From: an uncultured bacterium
GTDB taxonomy: Bacteria > Patescibacteriota > Patescibacteriia > Magasanikbacterales > GWA2-37-8
DNA length: 64,000 nucleotides
Direction: 5' to 3'
Assembly: GCA_937903605.1 (NCBI GenBank)
Contig: CALCZC010000028.1
Span: 70,680-134,679 of the forward strand
A model generated the notes under the pieces. The model made no database searches. It worked only from the letters and a program-made list of their open reading frames with translations, and had not been told where the DNA came from. Every line of letters begins with the position of its first letter. Within the stretch, counting starts at the first letter, position 1. A program made the translations under genes and the position numbers. Positions 3,223-39,833 of this stretch are shown here, piece by piece.

Positions 3223-3294
3223 GGTCTCGTCGTTCAACGGATAGGACGCAAGCTTGCGGAGCTTGCAATCTAGGTTCGATTCCTAGCGAGATCA
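3223..3294 (+). tRNA. tRNA-Arg (anticodon read as GCG; unusual, verify)
   Basis: Acceptor GGTCTCG/CGAGATC (one GU pair). D-arm GTTC..GGAC. Anticodon stem CAAGC/GCTTG with loop TTGCGGA. T-arm CTAGGTTCGATTCCTAG. Confidence 0.7.
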
Positions 3295-3298
3295 CAAA

Positions 3299-3340
3299 AA
3301 TAATACCGCCCAAATAGGGGCGGTATTATTTTTGTTTTTC
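3299..3340 (+). terminator. rho-independent terminator (perfect palindrome AATACCGCCC-AAATAG-GGGCGGTATT plus T-run), bidirectional
   Basis: Sequence aaaataataccgcccaaataggggcggtattatttttgttttt directly after tRNA-Arg. Confidence 0.7.
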
Positions 3341-3362
3341 TCTCGCTCGGAGTCGAACTTGA
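3341..3362 (-). repeat. inverted partial copy of a tRNA 3' half (T-arm plus acceptor); right arm of an extended palindrome centred on the tRNA-Arg terminator
   Basis: Reverse complement is AAGTTCGACTCCGAGCGAGAGA, against tRNA-Arg GGTTCGATTCCTAGCGAGATCA. Confidence 0.5.
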
Positions 3363-3368
3363 AAGGGT

Positions 3369-3977
3369 TTAAAGTTCTTCCAAAAATTTATTTAAGTGAG
3401 TTAGAGTATCTGATTTTTGATTTACTTTTAAAGCGTTGCCCCCCAATCTAGAAAACACTTCGCAAGTATTTGCCGAATCTTCAATTAAATAAGCATCTGA
3501 TATTTTGCTGTTAAAAGATGTTAAAGAATCAATAAATTGTTTTCCGTTATCATCTGTTTTCAACATGCCGGTGTCATAAGAATTAATCACATGATCAAAT
3601 AATTTATCTAATTTTAAAGAGGGGACAGTAAAACGACTAAAACAATCCATATTGCCGGTAATAAGAACAGCATGATGTTTTTTTCTTAATTTTTGGATTA
3701 TTTCAATTGTTTTATTATCTACTTTCATTTTTTGGCAATCTGAGACAAACGATTCCCAAACTTCCTTTTCAGGTAAGTTGGCCCTCTCGCTTAATAATTT
3801 ATTAATTTCCTCCGAAGTATGTTTGCCTCGCATCCAATTTTTTATCATTTCTTTTTCCGTAACAAAAAAATCGGCCACAACCTGAGAAAATGTGGGGTTT
3901 TTTGCGCTTAAAGTTTCCCAGAAACGGGAAAAACAAAGCGTGCCGTCCCAATCTATAAAAACTACTTTTCTTTTCAT
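3369..3977 (-). CDS. HAD-superfamily hydrolase-like protein
   Basis: N-terminal FIDWDGTL (DxDGT motif I of HAD hydrolases). 202 aa. Confidence 0.65.
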   Translation of the reverse strand: MKRKVVFIDWDGTLCFSRFWETLSAKNPTFSQVVADFFVTEKEMIKNWMRGKHTSEEINKLLSERANLPEKEVWESFVSDCQKMKVDNKTIEIIQKLRKKHHAVLITGNMDCFSRFTVPSLKLDKLFDHVINSYDTGMLKTDDNGKQFIDSLTSFNSKISDAYLIEDSANTCEVFSRLGGNALKVNQKSDTLTHLNKFLEEL

Positions 3978-4172
3978 ATCTTTTATTATATCACGATAGT
4001 GCCCTTTAGCGTCTCATTTGCCTCATTTTTAATCGTTTTTTGGCTAATCTTAGACCCCGACCGAGGTGCTTAGCAAAATAAAATGAGACATATCCAAAAA
4101 AGCTCTCAACACATTGATTTTTACCTGTTCTAGACCGTAGTAGTTCATATAATTAAAATCGCCTAGTTTGTG

Positions 4173-4216
4173 GACGGTTTTATTTTTGTTTTTTCTCGAT
4201 AGGAATCGAACTTTTT
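4173..4216 (-). repeat. second copy of the tRNA-Arg trailer/3'-half-like unit, direct repeat of 3318-3362
   Basis: ggacggttttatttttgttttttctcgataggaatcgaactt versus ggcggtattatttttgtttttctctcgctcggagtcgaactt, about 80% identity. Reverse complement GTTCGATTCCTATCGAGA matches the tRNA-Arg T-arm/acceptor at 17 of 18 positions. Confidence 0.5.
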
Positions 4217-9667: not shown

Positions 9668-10315
9668 TTATTTTGACAAAACCCCGTTTAAAATATCTGC
9701 TATTTTTACATCCTCTGTTAGATTAAGTTTTTTATTATTTATAAAAATGTTTGGCACTTGAGATAAACCTAGATTTTTTAAACTGATTTGTTCTTTTTCA
9801 ATTGTGTTTTTATAAAATTCATTTTGTAAACAATCTTTGAACGTGGCTGAATTTAAGTTCAAAGTAGATATTATTTCATCAACAGTCGACTCATTAAACT
9901 TGTTAGGTTTGATGGCCAAATTTAAAAAATTCCAATATTGATTTTGGTCCTGAGCACACTGTAGTGCTAGCAAAGGAAAAATATTCTTGTGTCCCAGCCA
10001 ATTTTCTTGAGCGATACCTTTGACCAGAAGGCGAACCGTTCCGGGATTTTTTTCTATATAAGAAATGATTTCTGCATGTCTTTTTGCACAAGAAGGACAT
10101 TCTAGAGAAAAAAACTCTGTTACGGTTATTGGTGAACCTGGACTGCCAAACATCGGATCTTCTTCGGTTACCGGTAAATAAACAGACAGTTCTTCAACCA
10201 GTGGTTTTTCAACCGGTTTCACATTTATTTTACTGCTTTGTTTAATCACTGAAAAAGAAATAAAAACCATCAAGATTAGAATAAGCGTCCCAAGTAAAAA
10301 TATTTTTTTATTCAT
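9668..10315 (-). CDS. DsbA-like thiol:disulfide oxidoreductase (thioredoxin fold, CPSC active site)
   Basis: Signal anchor followed by FFSLECPSCAKRH, the CxxC motif in DsbA context. Confidence 0.7.
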   Translation of the reverse strand: MNKKIFLLGTLILILMVFISFSVIKQSSKINVKPVEKPLVEELSVYLPVTEEDPMFGSPGSPITVTEFFSLECPSCAKRHAEIISYIEKNPGTVRLLVKGIAQENWLGHKNIFPLLALQCAQDQNQYWNFLNLAIKPNKFNESTVDEIISTLNLNSATFKDCLQNEFYKNTIEKEQISLKNLGLSQVPNIFINNKKLNLTEDVKIADILNGVLSK

Positions 10316-33239: not shown

Positions 33240-33509
33240 TCAATTTAAATACTTTTTGCTTCGAAGAGTTTTTTCCAGTTGAATTTTTAATTCATTGTGA
33301 CCTTTACCGCCTTTAAAAAATAATTCGCGTTTTTTTGCATCATCCCTACTTAAGTATGCTTCGTAATAAATCAATTTCAAAGGTCTTCGAAATTTTGTTG
33401 CTTTTACTAAACCGTTGGAATGGTTTAAATACCTTTGCTTTAAATTATTTGTATAACCAATATACAATTTTTTGTCTTTTTGACTGTATAATATATAAAC
33501 GTAAAACAT
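33240..33509 (-). CDS. GIY-YIG nuclease superfamily protein (UPF0213-like)
   Basis: MFYVYILYSQKDKKLYIGYTNNLKQRYLNHSNG: GIY...YIG spacing plus R and N residues. 89 aa. Confidence 0.8.
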   Translation of the reverse strand: MFYVYILYSQKDKKLYIGYTNNLKQRYLNHSNGLVKATKFRRPLKLIYYEAYLSRDDAKKRELFFKGGKGHNELKIQLEKTLRSKKYLN

Positions 33510-33526: not shown

Positions 33527-33649
33527 GGACGCTAAGCGTCCTTTTAAGATTACGTTAATTTAATTGTGGAGTGGGACGCTAAGCGTCCCTATTACAACGC
33601 TCAGCTTAGAGTGGGACGCTAAGCGTCCCGAATACGACGCTAAGCGTCG
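33527..33649. repeat. cluster of four palindromic hairpins GGGACGCTAAGCGTCCC between tRNA-Met and the GIY-YIG gene
   Basis: Copies at 33527-33541, 33573-33589, 33613-33629 and 33636-33649 (GACGCTAAGCGTCG). Confidence 0.6.
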
Positions 33650-33650
33650 T

Positions 33651-33724
33651 GTCAGGGGGGAGAGTCGAACTCCCGACCTAAGGGTTATGAATCCTTCGCT
33701 CTTACCAACTGAGCTACCCTGACA
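33651..33724 (-). tRNA. tRNA with CAT anticodon (elongator Met or Ile2/lysidine)
   Basis: Reverse strand GTCAGGGTAGCTCAGTTGGTAAGAGCGAAGGATTCATAACCCTTAGGTCGGGAGTTCGACTCTCCCCCCTGACA. Acceptor GTCAGGG/CCCTGAC. Anticodon loop TTCATAA. T-arm GGGAGTTCGACTCTCCC. Confidence 0.8.
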
Positions 33725-36689: not shown

Positions 36690-37217
36690 TTATATTACCG
36701 CTTTAGCTCTAGAGAGAGCCCGAAAAACTCGGACACGAGCGGTGATAGGGGATAGATTTAATATTTGTGCGACTTCTTTGAATGAAAATTCGGAAATATA
36801 ACGTAGTCTCAAAATTTCTTTATCATCTTGTGGAAGTTTTTCCAAAATTTCATCTACAAATATTTTGTCATTTAGATTTTCTCTGGCGATAAGATGATCA
36901 GGCACTTTTTCTGTTTCATCATTTTCTTCCAAAACCACAGTTTTGTTATTTTTGCGCCAATGCTGTCGGCATTCGTTGCGGGCGATAGCAAAAAGCCAAG
37001 CGCTAAATTTGACCCCTTTGGGTTCAAATTTGTGAAGCGATGTTATGGCTTTGAGCCAGGTTTCCTGCAGGATGTCATCGGCCAAAGCATTATCACGCAA
37101 TGTGTTTACCAGATAGCCGTAAAGTTTTGGGGTGATATCGTCCCAAAGCAAGGATACGGCGTTTTTACTGCCGGCTTTGGCGTTTTCCACCAAAGACAGC
37201 TCTTCTTTTAGGGTCAT
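36690..37217 (-). CDS. ECF (sigma-70 family group IV) RNA polymerase sigma factor
   Basis: Region 2 ILQETWLKAITSLHKF. Region 4 HTH RLRYISEFSFKEVAQILNLSPITARVRVFRALSR. 175 aa. Confidence 0.8.
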   Translation of the reverse strand: MTLKEELSLVENAKAGSKNAVSLLWDDITPKLYGYLVNTLRDNALADDILQETWLKAITSLHKFEPKGVKFSAWLFAIARNECRQHWRKNNKTVVLEENDETEKVPDHLIARENLNDKIFVDEILEKLPQDDKEILRLRYISEFSFKEVAQILNLSPITARVRVFRALSRAKAVI

Positions 37218-37307
37218 AGATTGGTAGGGGTTAAATTTGTATTTTACTACAAAAGTATAATACAGTAGGGTAGGTGAATGTTACAAGTTACGATCCTTGT
37301 TTTAATC

Positions 37308-37335
37308 TTGACATTTTTTATATTTATGGTATAAT
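37308..37335 (+). promoter_or_regulatory. consensus promoter TTGACA-N16-TATAAT driving tRNA-Glu
   Basis: cttgacattttttatatttatggtataat, about 20 nt upstream of the tRNA 5' end. Confidence 0.6.
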
Positions 37336-37354
37336 AGCCCTCGACAATTTATTT

Positions 37355-37426
37355 GGCCTCATCGTCTAATGGTTAGGACACCACGCTTTCAATGTGGTAA
37401 TAGGGGTTCGATTCCCCTTGGGGCTA
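37355..37426 (+). tRNA. tRNA-Glu (anticodon TTC)
   Basis: GGCCTCATCGTCTAATGGTTAGGACACCACGCTTTCAATGTGGTAATAGGGGTTCGATTCCCCTTGGGGCTA. Anticodon loop CTTTCAA. T-arm AGGGGTTCGATTCCCCT. Confidence 0.85.
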
Positions 37427-37432
37427 CATAAT

Positions 37433-37470
37433 AACAAAAGACCCCTGTTCATCAGGGGTCTTTTGTTATT
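37433..37470 (+). terminator. palindromic terminator AACAAAAGACCCCTGttcaTCAGGGGTCTTTTGTT
   Basis: Direct reading. Immediately after tRNA-Glu. Confidence 0.7.
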
Positions 37471-37795
37471 ATTATAGTTTTTCAAGGGGAATCGAACAAG
37501 GAAAGGGAGAAAACGTGAGTTTTCTCTTGCTGAGGAAAGGTTGTTGGAAAACCCGAAGGTTTTCCAAATAGGAGGCCGAAGGACGACGACGTGAGTATTC
37601 CCCTTGGGCTACATAAAATAAAATACTCCGACTTGCTCGGGGTATTTTATTTTATCTAGTCGTAAAGCGAGAATCGAAGGGTGCGAGCGAGCAAGGAGTG
37701 ATAGCGACGTAGCGAGGCGACGAAAATATGCCGGTGGCATATTTTCGGGCACCCCGGACGCGATTCCCCTTGGGGTTACATAAAATAACACACTC
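37471..37795. repeat. degenerate tandem copies (about 170-185 bp unit) of the tRNA-Glu trailer: direct 3'-end fragments ATTCCCCTTGGG(G)CTACATAA(A)ATAA at 37593-37616 and 37763-37787, and inverted T-arm fragments at 37478-37495 and 37668-37685
   Basis: gtattccccttgggctacataaaataaaatactccgacttgctcggggtattttatttt and cgcgattccccttggggttacataaaataa compared with the genuine cgattccccttggggctacataataa. Inverted copy caaggggaatcgaac is the reverse complement of GTTCGATTCCCCTTG. Confidence 0.6.
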
Positions 37796-37898
37796 ATTAT
37801 AAGCTGGATTTTTTGTATTGTCTTCAAATAGCCAAAAGAGTATAATATCCATATAAGCCAAATGGCTAAATTAAAGGCCTTTTTTGTCGACTTAAGAT

Positions 37899-39833
37899 AT
37901 GAAAGTCAAAAAGTTTAAAAAACCCATAGATAAAAATAAAGAACAGGAGAATGTCCAAGAATTGCTTTTTAAAAAAATGCCTATAGGGTGTATTTTGTGG
38001 GATGAAAAATTTAGAGCCAAATTATGGAATCCGGCGGCCGAGAAAATTTTTGGTTATTCTGCCAAAGAAGCCTTGGGTAAACACCCTTATGATATTATAG
38101 TTCCCAAATCCGCCCAAAAACAGGTAACTACAATTTGGCGCCGTCTTTTGCGGGGCGACACTTCTGCCAATTTGATTAATGAAAATAACACCAAAAAAGG
38201 AAATAAGATTATTTGCAGTTGGACCAATACACCAATAAAAAAAGAAAAAAATAACGTGATCGGTGTTTTGTCAATGGTAAAAAACATAAGTGAAGAACAA
38301 AAAAATAAAAACGCTTTAATTGAATCAGAAAGACGTCTTGCTGAAGTGATTGATTTTTTACCGGATGCCACTTTTGTTTTAAATAAAGAAGGCAAAGTTA
38401 TTGCTTGGAATAGAGCAGTTGAAAAAATGACCAAAACCAAAGCAAAAAAAGTTTTGGGTAAAGGAGATTATACTCATGCGATGCCTTTTTATGGCAGGCG
38501 TAGACCGGTTTTGGCCGATCTTATTTTGCAACCGGAACTTTTGCAGAAAATTATTCAAAATAAAAAATATCCTTTTATTAAAAAAGAAAAAGATACTTTG
38601 GTTACAGAAATTTTGTTAAAAAATGTTGGTGGTAAAGATATTTTTGTCTGGGCAAAAGCCGCCCCTCTTTATAACGCAGCTGGTAAAGTTTCCGGTGTTG
38701 TAGAATCTGTACGTGACATTACGGATAAGAAAAAATTGGAAAAAGAATTGCACGAGCGAGCCAACAGATTAGAAGAGTTGACTGCCAAAGACGAGGCAAT
38801 CCTTTGGTCATTGGGAGAAAGCTTGCGAGTATTTGACATTACGGGAAAAATTTTGAAAGTTAATCGAGCCTTTGAGAAATTGACCGGTTGGACCATGGAG
38901 GAAGTTTTGGGTAAAAAAGTTGAAGAAATTTTACCCCAAGAAGACGAGAGAGGTAAAAAGATTTCTTTGGGTGCACGCAATGTTTTTAAGGTTTTATCCG
39001 GTAAAGTCGGACAAATAGAAATTTCCGGTTTTTATATTCGTAAGGATAAGACAAAATTTCCAATGAGCGGGGTGATTACTCCGGTTTATTTGAAAAATGA
39101 AATTATTGGTGCGATTGAGGTTTTTCGTGATATTACCAAAGAAAAGGAGCTTGATAAAGCCAAAAGCGAATTTGTCTCATTAGCCTCGCACCAGTTACGT
39201 ACCCCACTGTCAATTATCAAATGGACTTTAAATTCTCTGGATAAACAAGATGAATTTTTTCAAAAAAATCAAGAAAAAATAAAAGACGTATATGAATCAA
39301 ACGAGCATTTGATTGCGCTGGTAAACAACCTTTTAAATATTACTAGGATAGAATCAGGAAAAATAATCGTTAATAAAAAGAAAGTCGGTTTATTAAATTT
39401 GGTAAAAGAGGCTTGTAAAAATTGTCAAAAACAAGCGCAAAATAGAAAACAAAAATTAAAATTTATTTTTGAAGGTAAAATAGACCATGTTTTTGTTGAT
39501 CCGATTCTTTTTTCCGAAGCTTTCTGTAATGTTTTGGGTAATGCTTTCAATTACGGTTTGGATAAATCAACGGTTACGGTTAAAGTAAAAAGAATTAACG
39601 GAGATTATCTGATTTCTGTTCATAATTTCGGTCCTGTTATTGGAGAGCAAGAAAAAAAGAAAATTTTTACCAAATTTTATCGCGGTCCAGCTTCTCCTGC
39701 TAGAAATTTTTCCGGGAGTGGTTTAGGTTTATTCTTTACCAAAGCCACGGTAGAAGCTAATGGTGGTAAAATCTGGTTTGAATCTATAAAAAACAAAGGT
39801 ACGACTTTTTATTTTACTGTGCCCATAAAATAA
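37899..39833 (+). CDS. PAS-domain sensor histidine kinase
   Basis: Several PAS-like segments. H-box FVSLASHQLRTPLSII. HATPase N/G boxes (NAFNYG, GSGLGL). 644 aa. Confidence 0.8.
   Translation: MKVKKFKKPIDKNKEQENVQELLFKKMPIGCILWDEKFRAKLWNPAAEKIFGYSAKEALGKHPYDIIVPKSAQKQVTTIWRRLLRGDTSANLINENNTKKGNKIICSWTNTPIKKEKNNVIGVLSMVKNISEEQKNKNALIESERRLAEVIDFLPDATFVLNKEGKVIAWNRAVEKMTKTKAKKVLGKGDYTHAMPFYGRRRPVLADLILQPELLQKIIQNKKYPFIKKEKDTLVTEILLKNVGGKDIFVWAKAAPLYNAAGKVSGVVESVRDITDKKKLEKELHERANRLEELTAKDEAILWSLGESLRVFDITGKILKVNRAFEKLTGWTMEEVLGKKVEEILPQEDERGKKISLGARNVFKVLSGKVGQIEISGFYIRKDKTKFPMSGVITPVYLKNEIIGAIEVFRDITKEKELDKAKSEFVSLASHQLRTPLSIIKWTLNSLDKQDEFFQKNQEKIKDVYESNEHLIALVNNLLNITRIESGKIIVNKKKVGLLNLVKEACKNCQKQAQNRKQKLKFIFEGKIDHVFVDPILFSEAFCNVLGNAFNYGLDKSTVTVKVKRINGDYLISVHNFGPVIGEQEKKKIFTKFYRGPASPARNFSGSGLGLFFTKATVEANGGKIWFESIKNKGTTFYFTVPIK

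Follow-up and report, generated by a model that had tools for sequence, protein, structure and literature searches.

A tRNA-Glu gene of a Patescibacteria genome is followed by two structured modules that resemble the RtT trailer repeats of Escherichia coli

We analysed a 64-kb stretch of DNA from an uncultured bacterium of the Magasanikbacterales (GenBank contig CALCZC010000028.1, positions 70,680 to 134,679), referred to below as the window, which is AT-rich with a GC content of ~36%. By the relatives of its genes, it belongs to Patescibacteria and lies close to Candidatus Magasanikbacteria. A tRNA-Glu(UUC) gene of the window is followed, on the same strand, by two further copies of its own 3' end, and between the copies lie terminator-type hairpins, inverted fragments of the tRNA and compact structured interiors. 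These two modules, and their likeness to the RtT repeats behind the tyrT and tyrV genes of E. coli, are the subject of this report. All positions are those of the window unless another contig is named, and contigs used for comparison carry the letter L and a number. The features of the locus are as follows (IR, inverted repeat; DR, direct repeat; T, terminator).

37308–37335, plus strand: sigma-70-type consensus promoter of the tRNA-Glu cassette (TTGACA-16-TATAAT, 12/12 match, with TG)
37355–37426 (end at 37426/7), plus strand: tRNA-Glu(UUC), CCA not encoded (ARAGORN; Rfam RF00005, 63 bits)
37409–37427, plus strand: DR0, the part of the tRNA that is copied, consisting of the 3' half of the T-loop, the 3' strand of the T-stem, the 3' strand of the acceptor stem, the discriminator and position +1
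37428–37472, bidirectional: T1, an intrinsic terminator formed by a perfect 20-bp palindrome (20-nt arms, 100% complementary)
37428–37612, plus strand: unit 1 (T1, IR1, interior and DR1), a 185-nt insertion/deletion unit that is absent from L025/L027 and L020
37483–37497, plus strand: IR1, CAAGGGGAATCGAAC, complementary at 15/15 positions to 37406–37420 of the tRNA; 5' strand of the module 1 closing helix
37498–37596, plus strand: interior of module 1, 99 nt, with hairpins carrying a GNRA-type GUGA loop and a CCGAAGG loop, and a purine-rich 3' junction (...AGGAGGCCGAAGGACGACGACGUGAGU)
37597–37612, plus strand: DR1, ATTCCCCTTGGG-CTAC, 16 nt copied from the 3' end of tRNA-Glu but lacking one G; provides the 3' strand of the helix that closes module 1
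37609–37659: T2, a second terminator-type hairpin (23-nt arms, 91%) with the core ACUCCGA-cuugc-UCGGGGU and a U-rich tail, identical in L025
37669–37678, plus strand: IR2, GAGAATCGAA, a degenerate fragment antisense to the T-arm (L006 has GGGGAATCGAA); provides the 5' strand of the helix that closes module 2
37679–37760, plus strand: interior of module 2, 82 nt, with a GGGUGC/GCACCC helix around an irregular G.A-rich helix that contains the motif GCAAGGAGUGAUAGCGACG, plus a 12-bp hairpin
37761–37779, plus strand: DR2, CGATTCCCCTTGGGGTTAC, 19 nt copied from the 3' end of tRNA-Glu with a single mismatch; provides the 3' strand of the helix that closes module 2
37780–37825, plus strand: decayed remnant of an ancestral tRNA-Glu trailer/terminator, recognised by alignment (compare the terminator ...ACTCAGCGTAAGCTGGGTTTTTTGT of L007 and L022)

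The consensus promoter, and the palindromic terminator followed by an inverted fragment of the T-arm, had been described in an earlier note on this DNA, and both descriptions hold. The -35 region of the promoter ('aatcTTGACA') is conserved in L006, L007, L022 and L025, and the T1 hairpin is similar, by reading, to a hairpin 3' of the L006 element. On the minus strand, a promoter-like site (AAGACA-17-TATAAT, 37824->37796) aims into module 2 and overlaps a plus-strand promoter-like site of a kinase gene.

The modules (37483–37612 and 37669–37779) are ~115–130 nt long and lie on the same strand as the tRNA-Glu gene upstream. Their parts come in a fixed order: a terminator hairpin, an IR that is antisense to the T-loop, T-stem and acceptor (in IR1, the start of the acceptor strand of tRNA-Glu), an interior of 80–100 nt, and a DR that copies the tRNA 3' end. 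Besides mirroring the tRNA across the terminator, each IR pairs with the next DR downstream. This pairing, which the earlier note missed, is the key to the anatomy. In the predicted folds it forms a closing helix that joins IR to DR and leaves the last acceptor bases and the discriminator single-stranded. For module 1 (fold of 37478–37620, -45.4 kcal/mol, z = -3.0, with 0/200 shuffles equally stable), the predicted closing helix is CAAGGGGAAU/AUUCCCCUUG and encloses two hairpins and the purine-rich 3' junction. The fold of module 2 (37664–37785) has an analogous closing helix. Both modules have a GC content of 48–57% in a genome of 36% GC and are purine-rich on the tRNA strand, a skew found in all of the elements described here (G 31–38%, T 10–20%).

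The copies of the tRNA end are spaced 185 and 167 nt apart from start to start, and the chance expectation in the window for the tRNA-end 21-mer with up to three mismatches is 0.00. Both downstream copies proposed in the earlier note exist, one with a deletion and one with a mismatch, but the first starts at 37597 and not at 37593. The hairpin and degenerate inverted fragment said to follow each copy are present behind DR1 (37609–37659 and 37669–37678), whereas DR2 has no inverted fragment behind it and its supposed hairpin is the decayed terminator remnant. Tandem Repeats Finder detected none of the three tandem units that had been proposed, and the interiors of modules 1 and 2 have no similarity beyond their tRNA-derived ends. 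Judged by sequence, the two modules are members of different subfamilies and not duplicates of each other. The observation in the earlier note is thus real but misdescribed as tandem units. The note saw no 5' tRNA halves at the downstream copies by eye, and neither ARAGORN nor Rfam, even at E<=10, gave a tRNA-like match or cloverleaf there.

Module 2 is 88–90% identical over 110–118 nt to an element behind the tRNA-Glu gene of L006 (Patescibacteria RA.bin39). A neighbouring 407-aa protein in L006 is only 62% identical to its counterpart in the window and the genomic context is different: in L006 the tRNA-Glu gene comes after an HU gene and is followed by a terminator and then the module 2-like element, and the flanking terminators are not conserved along with it. 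Across three variants of module 2 (window, L006 and L020), the 31 predicted pairs include three compensatory changes on both sides, two U.G pairs on the plus strand and one A.C. A 2-bp helix at alignment columns 23–24/53–54, for example, reads GC/GC, GU/AC and AU/AU. In a second subfamily (L010 and L014), 35 predicted pairs include five both-sided changes and none is broken. The high conservation together with the compensatory changes gives indications, at the level of sequence, that the structure of module 2 is under selection. A protein-coding explanation was considered and dropped: the gene caller placed a 66-aa open reading frame (ORF) over module 2, and the differences from L006, by reading, have no codon periodicity.

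The same design occurs in other genomes. We scanned metagenomes with the pattern GGGGAATCGAA-N(75-105)-ATTCCCCTTGGG, which fixes the two ends and leaves position behind a tRNA, interior size and structure free. The scan returned 10 contigs representing ~7 distinct loci. Nine of the 10 stretches lie directly behind a detected tRNA-Glu (UUC or CUC), usually past a terminator, and the tenth is a truncated copy of L006. The contigs with the design range in GC content from 34% to 69%, the interiors of the elements from 84 to 132 nt, and some arrays (L014, L019) contain a second unit. In one contig, L013, the same design is found at a tRNA-Lys(UUU) (9815–10051) and is made from the tRNA-Lys gene's own sequence. 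Here a 62-nt block (tRNA end, hairpin without a U-run and inverted fragment) is repeated exactly on either side of a 112-nt structured interior, which starts with GUUGAAAGGGG and ends with GCGACGUGAG, resembling module 1. The DR of L022 shares a CCCG T-stem variant that is specific to the tRNA of its lineage, while the DR of L012 matches another tRNA-Glu and not the adjacent one. In L010 (3106–3125), L013 (358–377) and L017 (1497–1516), a CCA that the neighbouring tRNA gene does not encode follows the DR; in L010, for instance, the tRNA has GGGGCTAtgaaa and the downstream copy GGGGCTACCAtc.

Subfamilies were linked by local alignment of the interiors against dinucleotide shuffles. The links were strongest between the elements of L015 and L022 (z 9.6) and of L014 and L015 (z 7.8), followed by module 2 with the L015 element (L015E; z 3.9) and module 1 with the L013 tRNA-Lys element (z 3.4). 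The module 2 motif is common to L015E, and the 3' junction of module 1 resembles that of the L013 tRNA-Lys element. In a MAFFT multiple alignment of all elements only the ends aligned.

Comparison with closely related contigs shows that units are gained and lost whole. In L025/L027 and L020 the order is tRNA-Glu, T2, module 2 and DR2, with a gap of exactly 37428–37612 and a junction inside the tRNA-end copy. The comparison of homologous loci thus revealed presence and absence of unit 1 but found module 2 conserved and not decayed. Apart from the gap, the window and L025 are 98–100% identical over 37100–37899 and 92–94% identical over 37900–38199. Outside this tract, identity falls to 75–83% further left and 74% further right. 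The gain or loss of unit 1 was therefore very recent and took place within a tract of recombination that has the tRNA cassette at its centre. The trailer 3' of DR2 is a decayed copy of the terminator found directly behind the tRNA-Glu gene in L007 and L022; the remnant is thus the old tRNA-Glu terminator and the newer units lie nearer to the tRNA. Other assemblies of the same strain (L001–L005) are identical to the window and gave no population variants. Three same-strain contigs from other samples (L004, L003 and L005) end inside unit 1, at 37486, 37544 and 37559, which may reflect the palindromes or population heterogeneity.

The cassette as a whole also changes place. It lies after HU in L006 and L022/23, beside other genes in L020, and between a PAS kinase gene and a sigma factor gene in the window and L025 (in one orientation) and in L007 (in the opposite orientation). 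Among these relatives, homology on the sigma factor side always ends at window position 37287; the cassette, from promoter to trailer, occupies 37287–37790. The window, L006, L007 and L022 each combine terminators and IR-interior-DR blocks in a different way.

RtT has been an orphan RNA since 1991 and is known mainly from enteric and related gammaproteobacteria. The number of repeats in E. coli is reported to change by unequal (homologous) recombination (Egan and Landy in 1978; Rossi and co-workers in 1981). The RtT unit of tyrT and tyrV consists of a spacer, an IR (GGGGAAGGAT, the complement of ATCCTTCCCC in tRNA-Tyr), a GC- and purine-rich interior of ~90 nt with hairpins that include CCCGAAGGG, and a DR that equals the last 19 nt of tRNA-Tyr including CCA (AATCCTTCCCCCACCACCA, present three times after tyrV). 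The Rfam model RF00391 scores the E. coli units at 133–138 bits (gathering score 45 bits), and its consensus structure has a U-run at the start and is closed by an IR:DR helix, with ccaCCACCA unpaired. A passage in PMC3318445, citing Bosl & Kersten 1991, describes the rtT RNA as encoded by one tyrT repeat unit and released from the tyrT transcript. According to a passage in a preprint (bioRxiv 10.1101/2024.07.17.603846), this RNA is thought to be involved in processing of the tyrT transcript and in modulating the stringent response, with an unknown mode of action. RtT-family RNAs beside Asn- and Lys-tRNA genes have been seen on Northern blots in Actinobacillus (PMC4986893). We found no RtT near the Asn tRNA genes of E. 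coli in the 26 kb examined.

The likeness between the window modules and RtT covers position, size, ends and the general make-up of the interior. Both kinds of element follow a tRNA gene immediately and point the same way as it does, with a repeat period of 178 bp in E. coli and of 185 and 167 in the window, and the last 16–19 nt of the tRNA are copied at the end of each unit. The pairing register is the same: the 3' bases of the T-loop, the 3' strand of the T-stem and the first two to four acceptor bases are paired, while the remaining acceptor bases and the discriminator are free. The interior of both is rich in GC and in purines and has two or three hairpins, among them ones with CCGAAGG-type loops. 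Its 3' junction, again rich in purines, ends in ...CGACG-N-GAG(U)A beside the tRNA-end copy, and a U-run comes before the unit (in RtT, in the Rfam consensus). In contrast, the partner tRNA here is tRNA-Glu (also Lys and Arg) and not Tyr, and the host is Patescibacteria/Magasanikbacteria-like instead of a gammaproteobacterium. Here every unit comes after an intrinsic terminator hairpin; in tyrT there is a 59-nt spacer without structure. The four units of E. coli are near-identical, while the two of the window represent different subfamilies. The window copies do not encode CCA, which is encoded in the copies of L010, L013, L017 and L019. Finally, the RF00391 model does not detect the window elements.

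At the sequence level, the clearest similarity to RtT came from L015E, a metagenomic relative of the L022 element. Aligned with the RtT consensus (GCCC-AGGGCAAGGAGCGAAGCGACG with GCCCGAAGGGCGAGGCGCGAAGCGACG), it gave z = 5.1 and p about 0.002–0.003, at the equivalent 3' junction, as one of 11 tests. Because the design and register are shared, the model gives no match and the similarity of the window's own modules is weak, we file the window elements as built, and by analogy probably working, like RtT, and not as demonstrable members of RF00391. They are a distant variant of the RtT-type tRNA-trailer repeat.

Taken together, these observations lead us to read 37428–37779 as two RtT-like tRNA-trailer modules, neither tandem duplicates nor prophage scars, with a probability of roughly 60%. 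By analogy with RtT, read-through of leaky terminators from the strong tRNA promoter would transcribe the modules together with the tRNA. The enzymes of tRNA 3' maturation would then trim them at their tRNA-like 3' end, and the products would build up as stable small RNAs with an exposed, uncharged tail that resembles a tRNA acceptor. The arrays, on this reading, grow, shrink and are reshuffled through recombination between copies of the tRNA end. That a trailer small RNA could arise through tRNA-processing enzymes has a parallel, in logic only, in 3'ETS-leuZ, a 3' external transcribed spacer of an E. coli tRNA; spacers of that type differ in having neither a tRNA-end copy nor an antisense fragment.

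Several points weigh against this reading. A strong intrinsic terminator precedes each module and there is no plus-strand promoter-like site between 37336 and 37818; transcription of the modules could be very low. The RtT model gave no match on the window at the gathering score, and none at E<=10 on the window region, on six related loci or on L015E alone (161 bases). This leaves homology with RtT unestablished, and the likeness could have arisen by convergence. In direct comparison with the RtT consensus, module 1 reached p = 0.02 at a non-equivalent position and module 2 was not significant. Other Rfam families, at gathering and at E<=10, gave only chance-level hairpin matches in the window region and the related loci. 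The structure of module 1 is drawn from one sequence, because the data contain no homologue of it, and the covariation counts come from two or three sequences per subfamily and should be read as indications without statistical weight. Folds of the minus strand equal those of the plus strand in stability (z about -3), so that fold energies do not discriminate the strands; the support from base pairs for the tRNA strand is weak (two G.U against one A.C), although both the G.U pairs and the purine skew lean towards it. Pairing with the DR also leaves one feature unexplained, as the IR is complementary to T-loop bases that are missing from the DR. This extra complementarity may be a sign that base-pairing to the tRNA itself, or a role at the DNA level, matters as well.

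The best-surviving alternative is that the modules are miniature non-autonomous integrative elements, similar to cis-mobilizable elements (CIMEs) or to MITEs (miniature transposable elements with inverted repeats), which were inserted at the T-loop/3' end of the tRNA by site-specific recombination acting in trans. The direct copies would then be attL and attR, the inverted fragment would be a second core site that permits inversions, and the folded interior would serve recombination (for example by folding as a single strand or by offering arms to which proteins bind) and not an RNA function. Much of the behaviour of the units fits this account. The direct copies begin within the T-loop and extend past the tRNA end, and att sites of a T-loop type have reportedly been described by Williams in 2002. 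As in att scars and CIME-type arrays, tRNA 3'-end direct repeats adjoin the tRNA gene and whole units are present or absent between strains, in our case precisely so for unit 1 between near-identical sequences. The shuffling of terminators and IR-interior-DR blocks, the placement of the cassette at varied sites and in both orientations with a break always at 37287, the L012 copy that matches a non-adjacent tRNA-Glu, and the CCA that follows the copies of L010, L013 and L017 likewise fit, as do two inverted fragments that flank a HAD-hydrolase gene near tRNA-Arg (see below).

The content of the units speaks otherwise. No integrase or remnant of one was found between the repeats (interiors of 99 and 82 nt) or near any related element, and no integrase, ORF or gene remnant is present in ~10 independent elements, the interior size of which stays constant at 84–132 nt. 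The only ORFs over the units are mechanical minus-strand ORFs of 69–72 aa, which by reading have no periodic substitution pattern. Viral contigs contained 0 matches for the att core, which the earlier note had suggested looking for elsewhere in the assembly, and 0 for the IR...DR design, and there are no dispersed copies in the 64-kb window. A circle of 167–185 bp would be very small for recombination. The sequences of IR and DR track the local tRNA rather than the element. RtT units with this design are transcribed in E. coli, and homologous recombination between copies of 16–19 nt can explain the gain and loss of units. The modules also depart from att scars and CIME-type arrays in that units of ~170–185 bp carry neither integrase nor cargo, have a conserved, compensating structure and contain an inverted copy of the core site in every unit. 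We therefore regard the integrative account as unlikely. The serial att duplication proposed in the earlier note is partly supported, since the copies bound indel units and their left edge lies in the T-loop; a compact, conserved and compensating interior, a design that recurs and matches RtT, and the want of an integrase, ORF or viral copy count against it. The note's other proposal, a duplicated regulatory trailer, agrees better with the evidence, although neither of units 1 and 2 is a copy of the other. A MITE in the strict sense was rejected: the terminal repeats are tRNA-specific (Glu, Lys, Arg and Tyr versions), the 'duplication' is at least 16–19 nt, and the window has no other copy.

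The units could also be functionless leftovers, that is, decayed tandem duplications of tRNA-Glu and its trailer that arose by slippage or unequal crossing-over and whose 3' ends were kept by gene conversion with the live tRNA. The interior of E. coli RtT, by reading, still resembles the 5' half of tRNA-Tyr, L013 (at tRNA-Lys) and L019 have exact duplicates of tRNA end, hairpin and inverted fragment, and the deletion in DR1 and the mismatch in DR2 look like decay. Set against this, the interior of module 2 is ~90% conserved next to a protein of 62% identity, and its helices show compensatory changes and are intact except for one A.C. Interiors of 48–57% GC with a strong purine skew in a 36% GC genome, the same IR:DR register in distant phyla and the want of any detectable cloverleaf remnant make this explanation very improbable.

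A further alternative, which we consider extremely improbable, is that the elements act as DNA or as minus-strand RNA, for instance as a small RNA convergent to the tRNA, started from the site at 37824->37796, with its first 18–20 nt antisense to the 3' end of tRNA-Glu. The AAGACA-17-TATAAT site would place the start just outside DR2, the terminators are bidirectional, the minus-strand folds are as stable as noted above, and the one A.C mismatch becomes G.U on the minus strand. In L006, though, a terminator hairpin separates the element from any downstream promoter; the purine richness and the two U.G pairs favour the plus strand, and RtT is a plus-strand RNA relative to its tRNA.

The remaining candidates were dismissed. 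ARAGORN finds only four tRNAs in the window, and in this region the Rfam tRNA model matches only 37355–37426, even at E<=10, which leaves no tRNA pseudogenes. On anatomy alone we rejected integron attC sites (the R''/R' boxes are wrongly ordered and incomplete), IS200/IS605-type and IS110-type elements (these give no direct repeats of 16–19 nt, and no transposase is present), retrons and group I or group II introns (no reverse transcriptase, wrong size), and tmRNA-like, T-box and retroviral-type primer-binding-site structures.

On the favoured reading of two RtT-like trailer modules, the same design in a genome of the candidate phyla radiation and in unrelated metagenomic organisms suggests that the design is old or was repeatedly re-invented. 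Any functional model would have to accommodate its invariants: an antisense segment that pairs with a tRNA-end copy in a fixed register, an acceptor tail that stays unpaired and, next to the copy, a junction rich in purines. The elements described here supply the sequence diversity needed for a proper covariation model. They are also a warning that repeated tRNA 3' ends behind a tRNA gene are not necessarily att scars. A wider proposal, which we put forward as speculation and consider quite unlikely in its full form, is that RtT-like modules form a widespread superfamily, from Gammaproteobacteria to Patescibacteria and GC-rich phyla, that homes to tRNA 3' ends, re-tailors its antisense and sense ends to the host tRNA, moves as whole units and drives the relocation and inversion of tRNA cassettes through its core copies, with an RNA that would mimic an uncharged acceptor end.

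A partial related case lies at a second tRNA gene of the window, as the earlier note had correctly recognised in assigning the same trailer architecture to tRNA-Arg. Its features are as follows.

3223–3294: tRNA-Arg
3296–3335: terminator of tRNA-Arg
3342–3358, plus strand: inverted fragment CTCGCTCGGAGTCGAAC behind tRNA-Arg and its terminator, complementary at 15/17 positions to the gene's own T-arm/acceptor

Next comes TTGAAAGGG, as module 1 has at its start, and the element is then truncated by the end of a HAD-hydrolase gene. A second, better inverted fragment (CTCGATAGGAATCGAAC, 4195–4211, 16/17) lies with a decayed terminator (4150–4211) on the far side of this gene. The HAD gene (3369–3977, minus strand) is thus flanked by direct repeats of terminator plus fragment.

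Small GIY-YIG nuclease ORFs (84–89 aa) adjoin tRNA genes at two places. In the window, one (33240–33509, minus strand) lies next to tRNA-Met (33649–33723). In L010 (3338–3674), one lies between a duplicate of a 36-nt 5' fragment of tRNA-Glu, together with its promoter, and a complete tRNA-Glu; this arrangement looks like a homing-type insertion in the anticodon loop.

Directly upstream of the tRNA-Val gene of the window is a GC-rich structured stretch of ~120 nt (2436–2555; -49 kcal/mol, z = -3.6). It has no Rfam match. Its fold is closed by the helix GGAUUCAU/AUGAAUU and contains a GCCUGCCUGCC hairpin, and its 3' side is rich in purines; it may be another trailer or leader module of the RtT-like kind.

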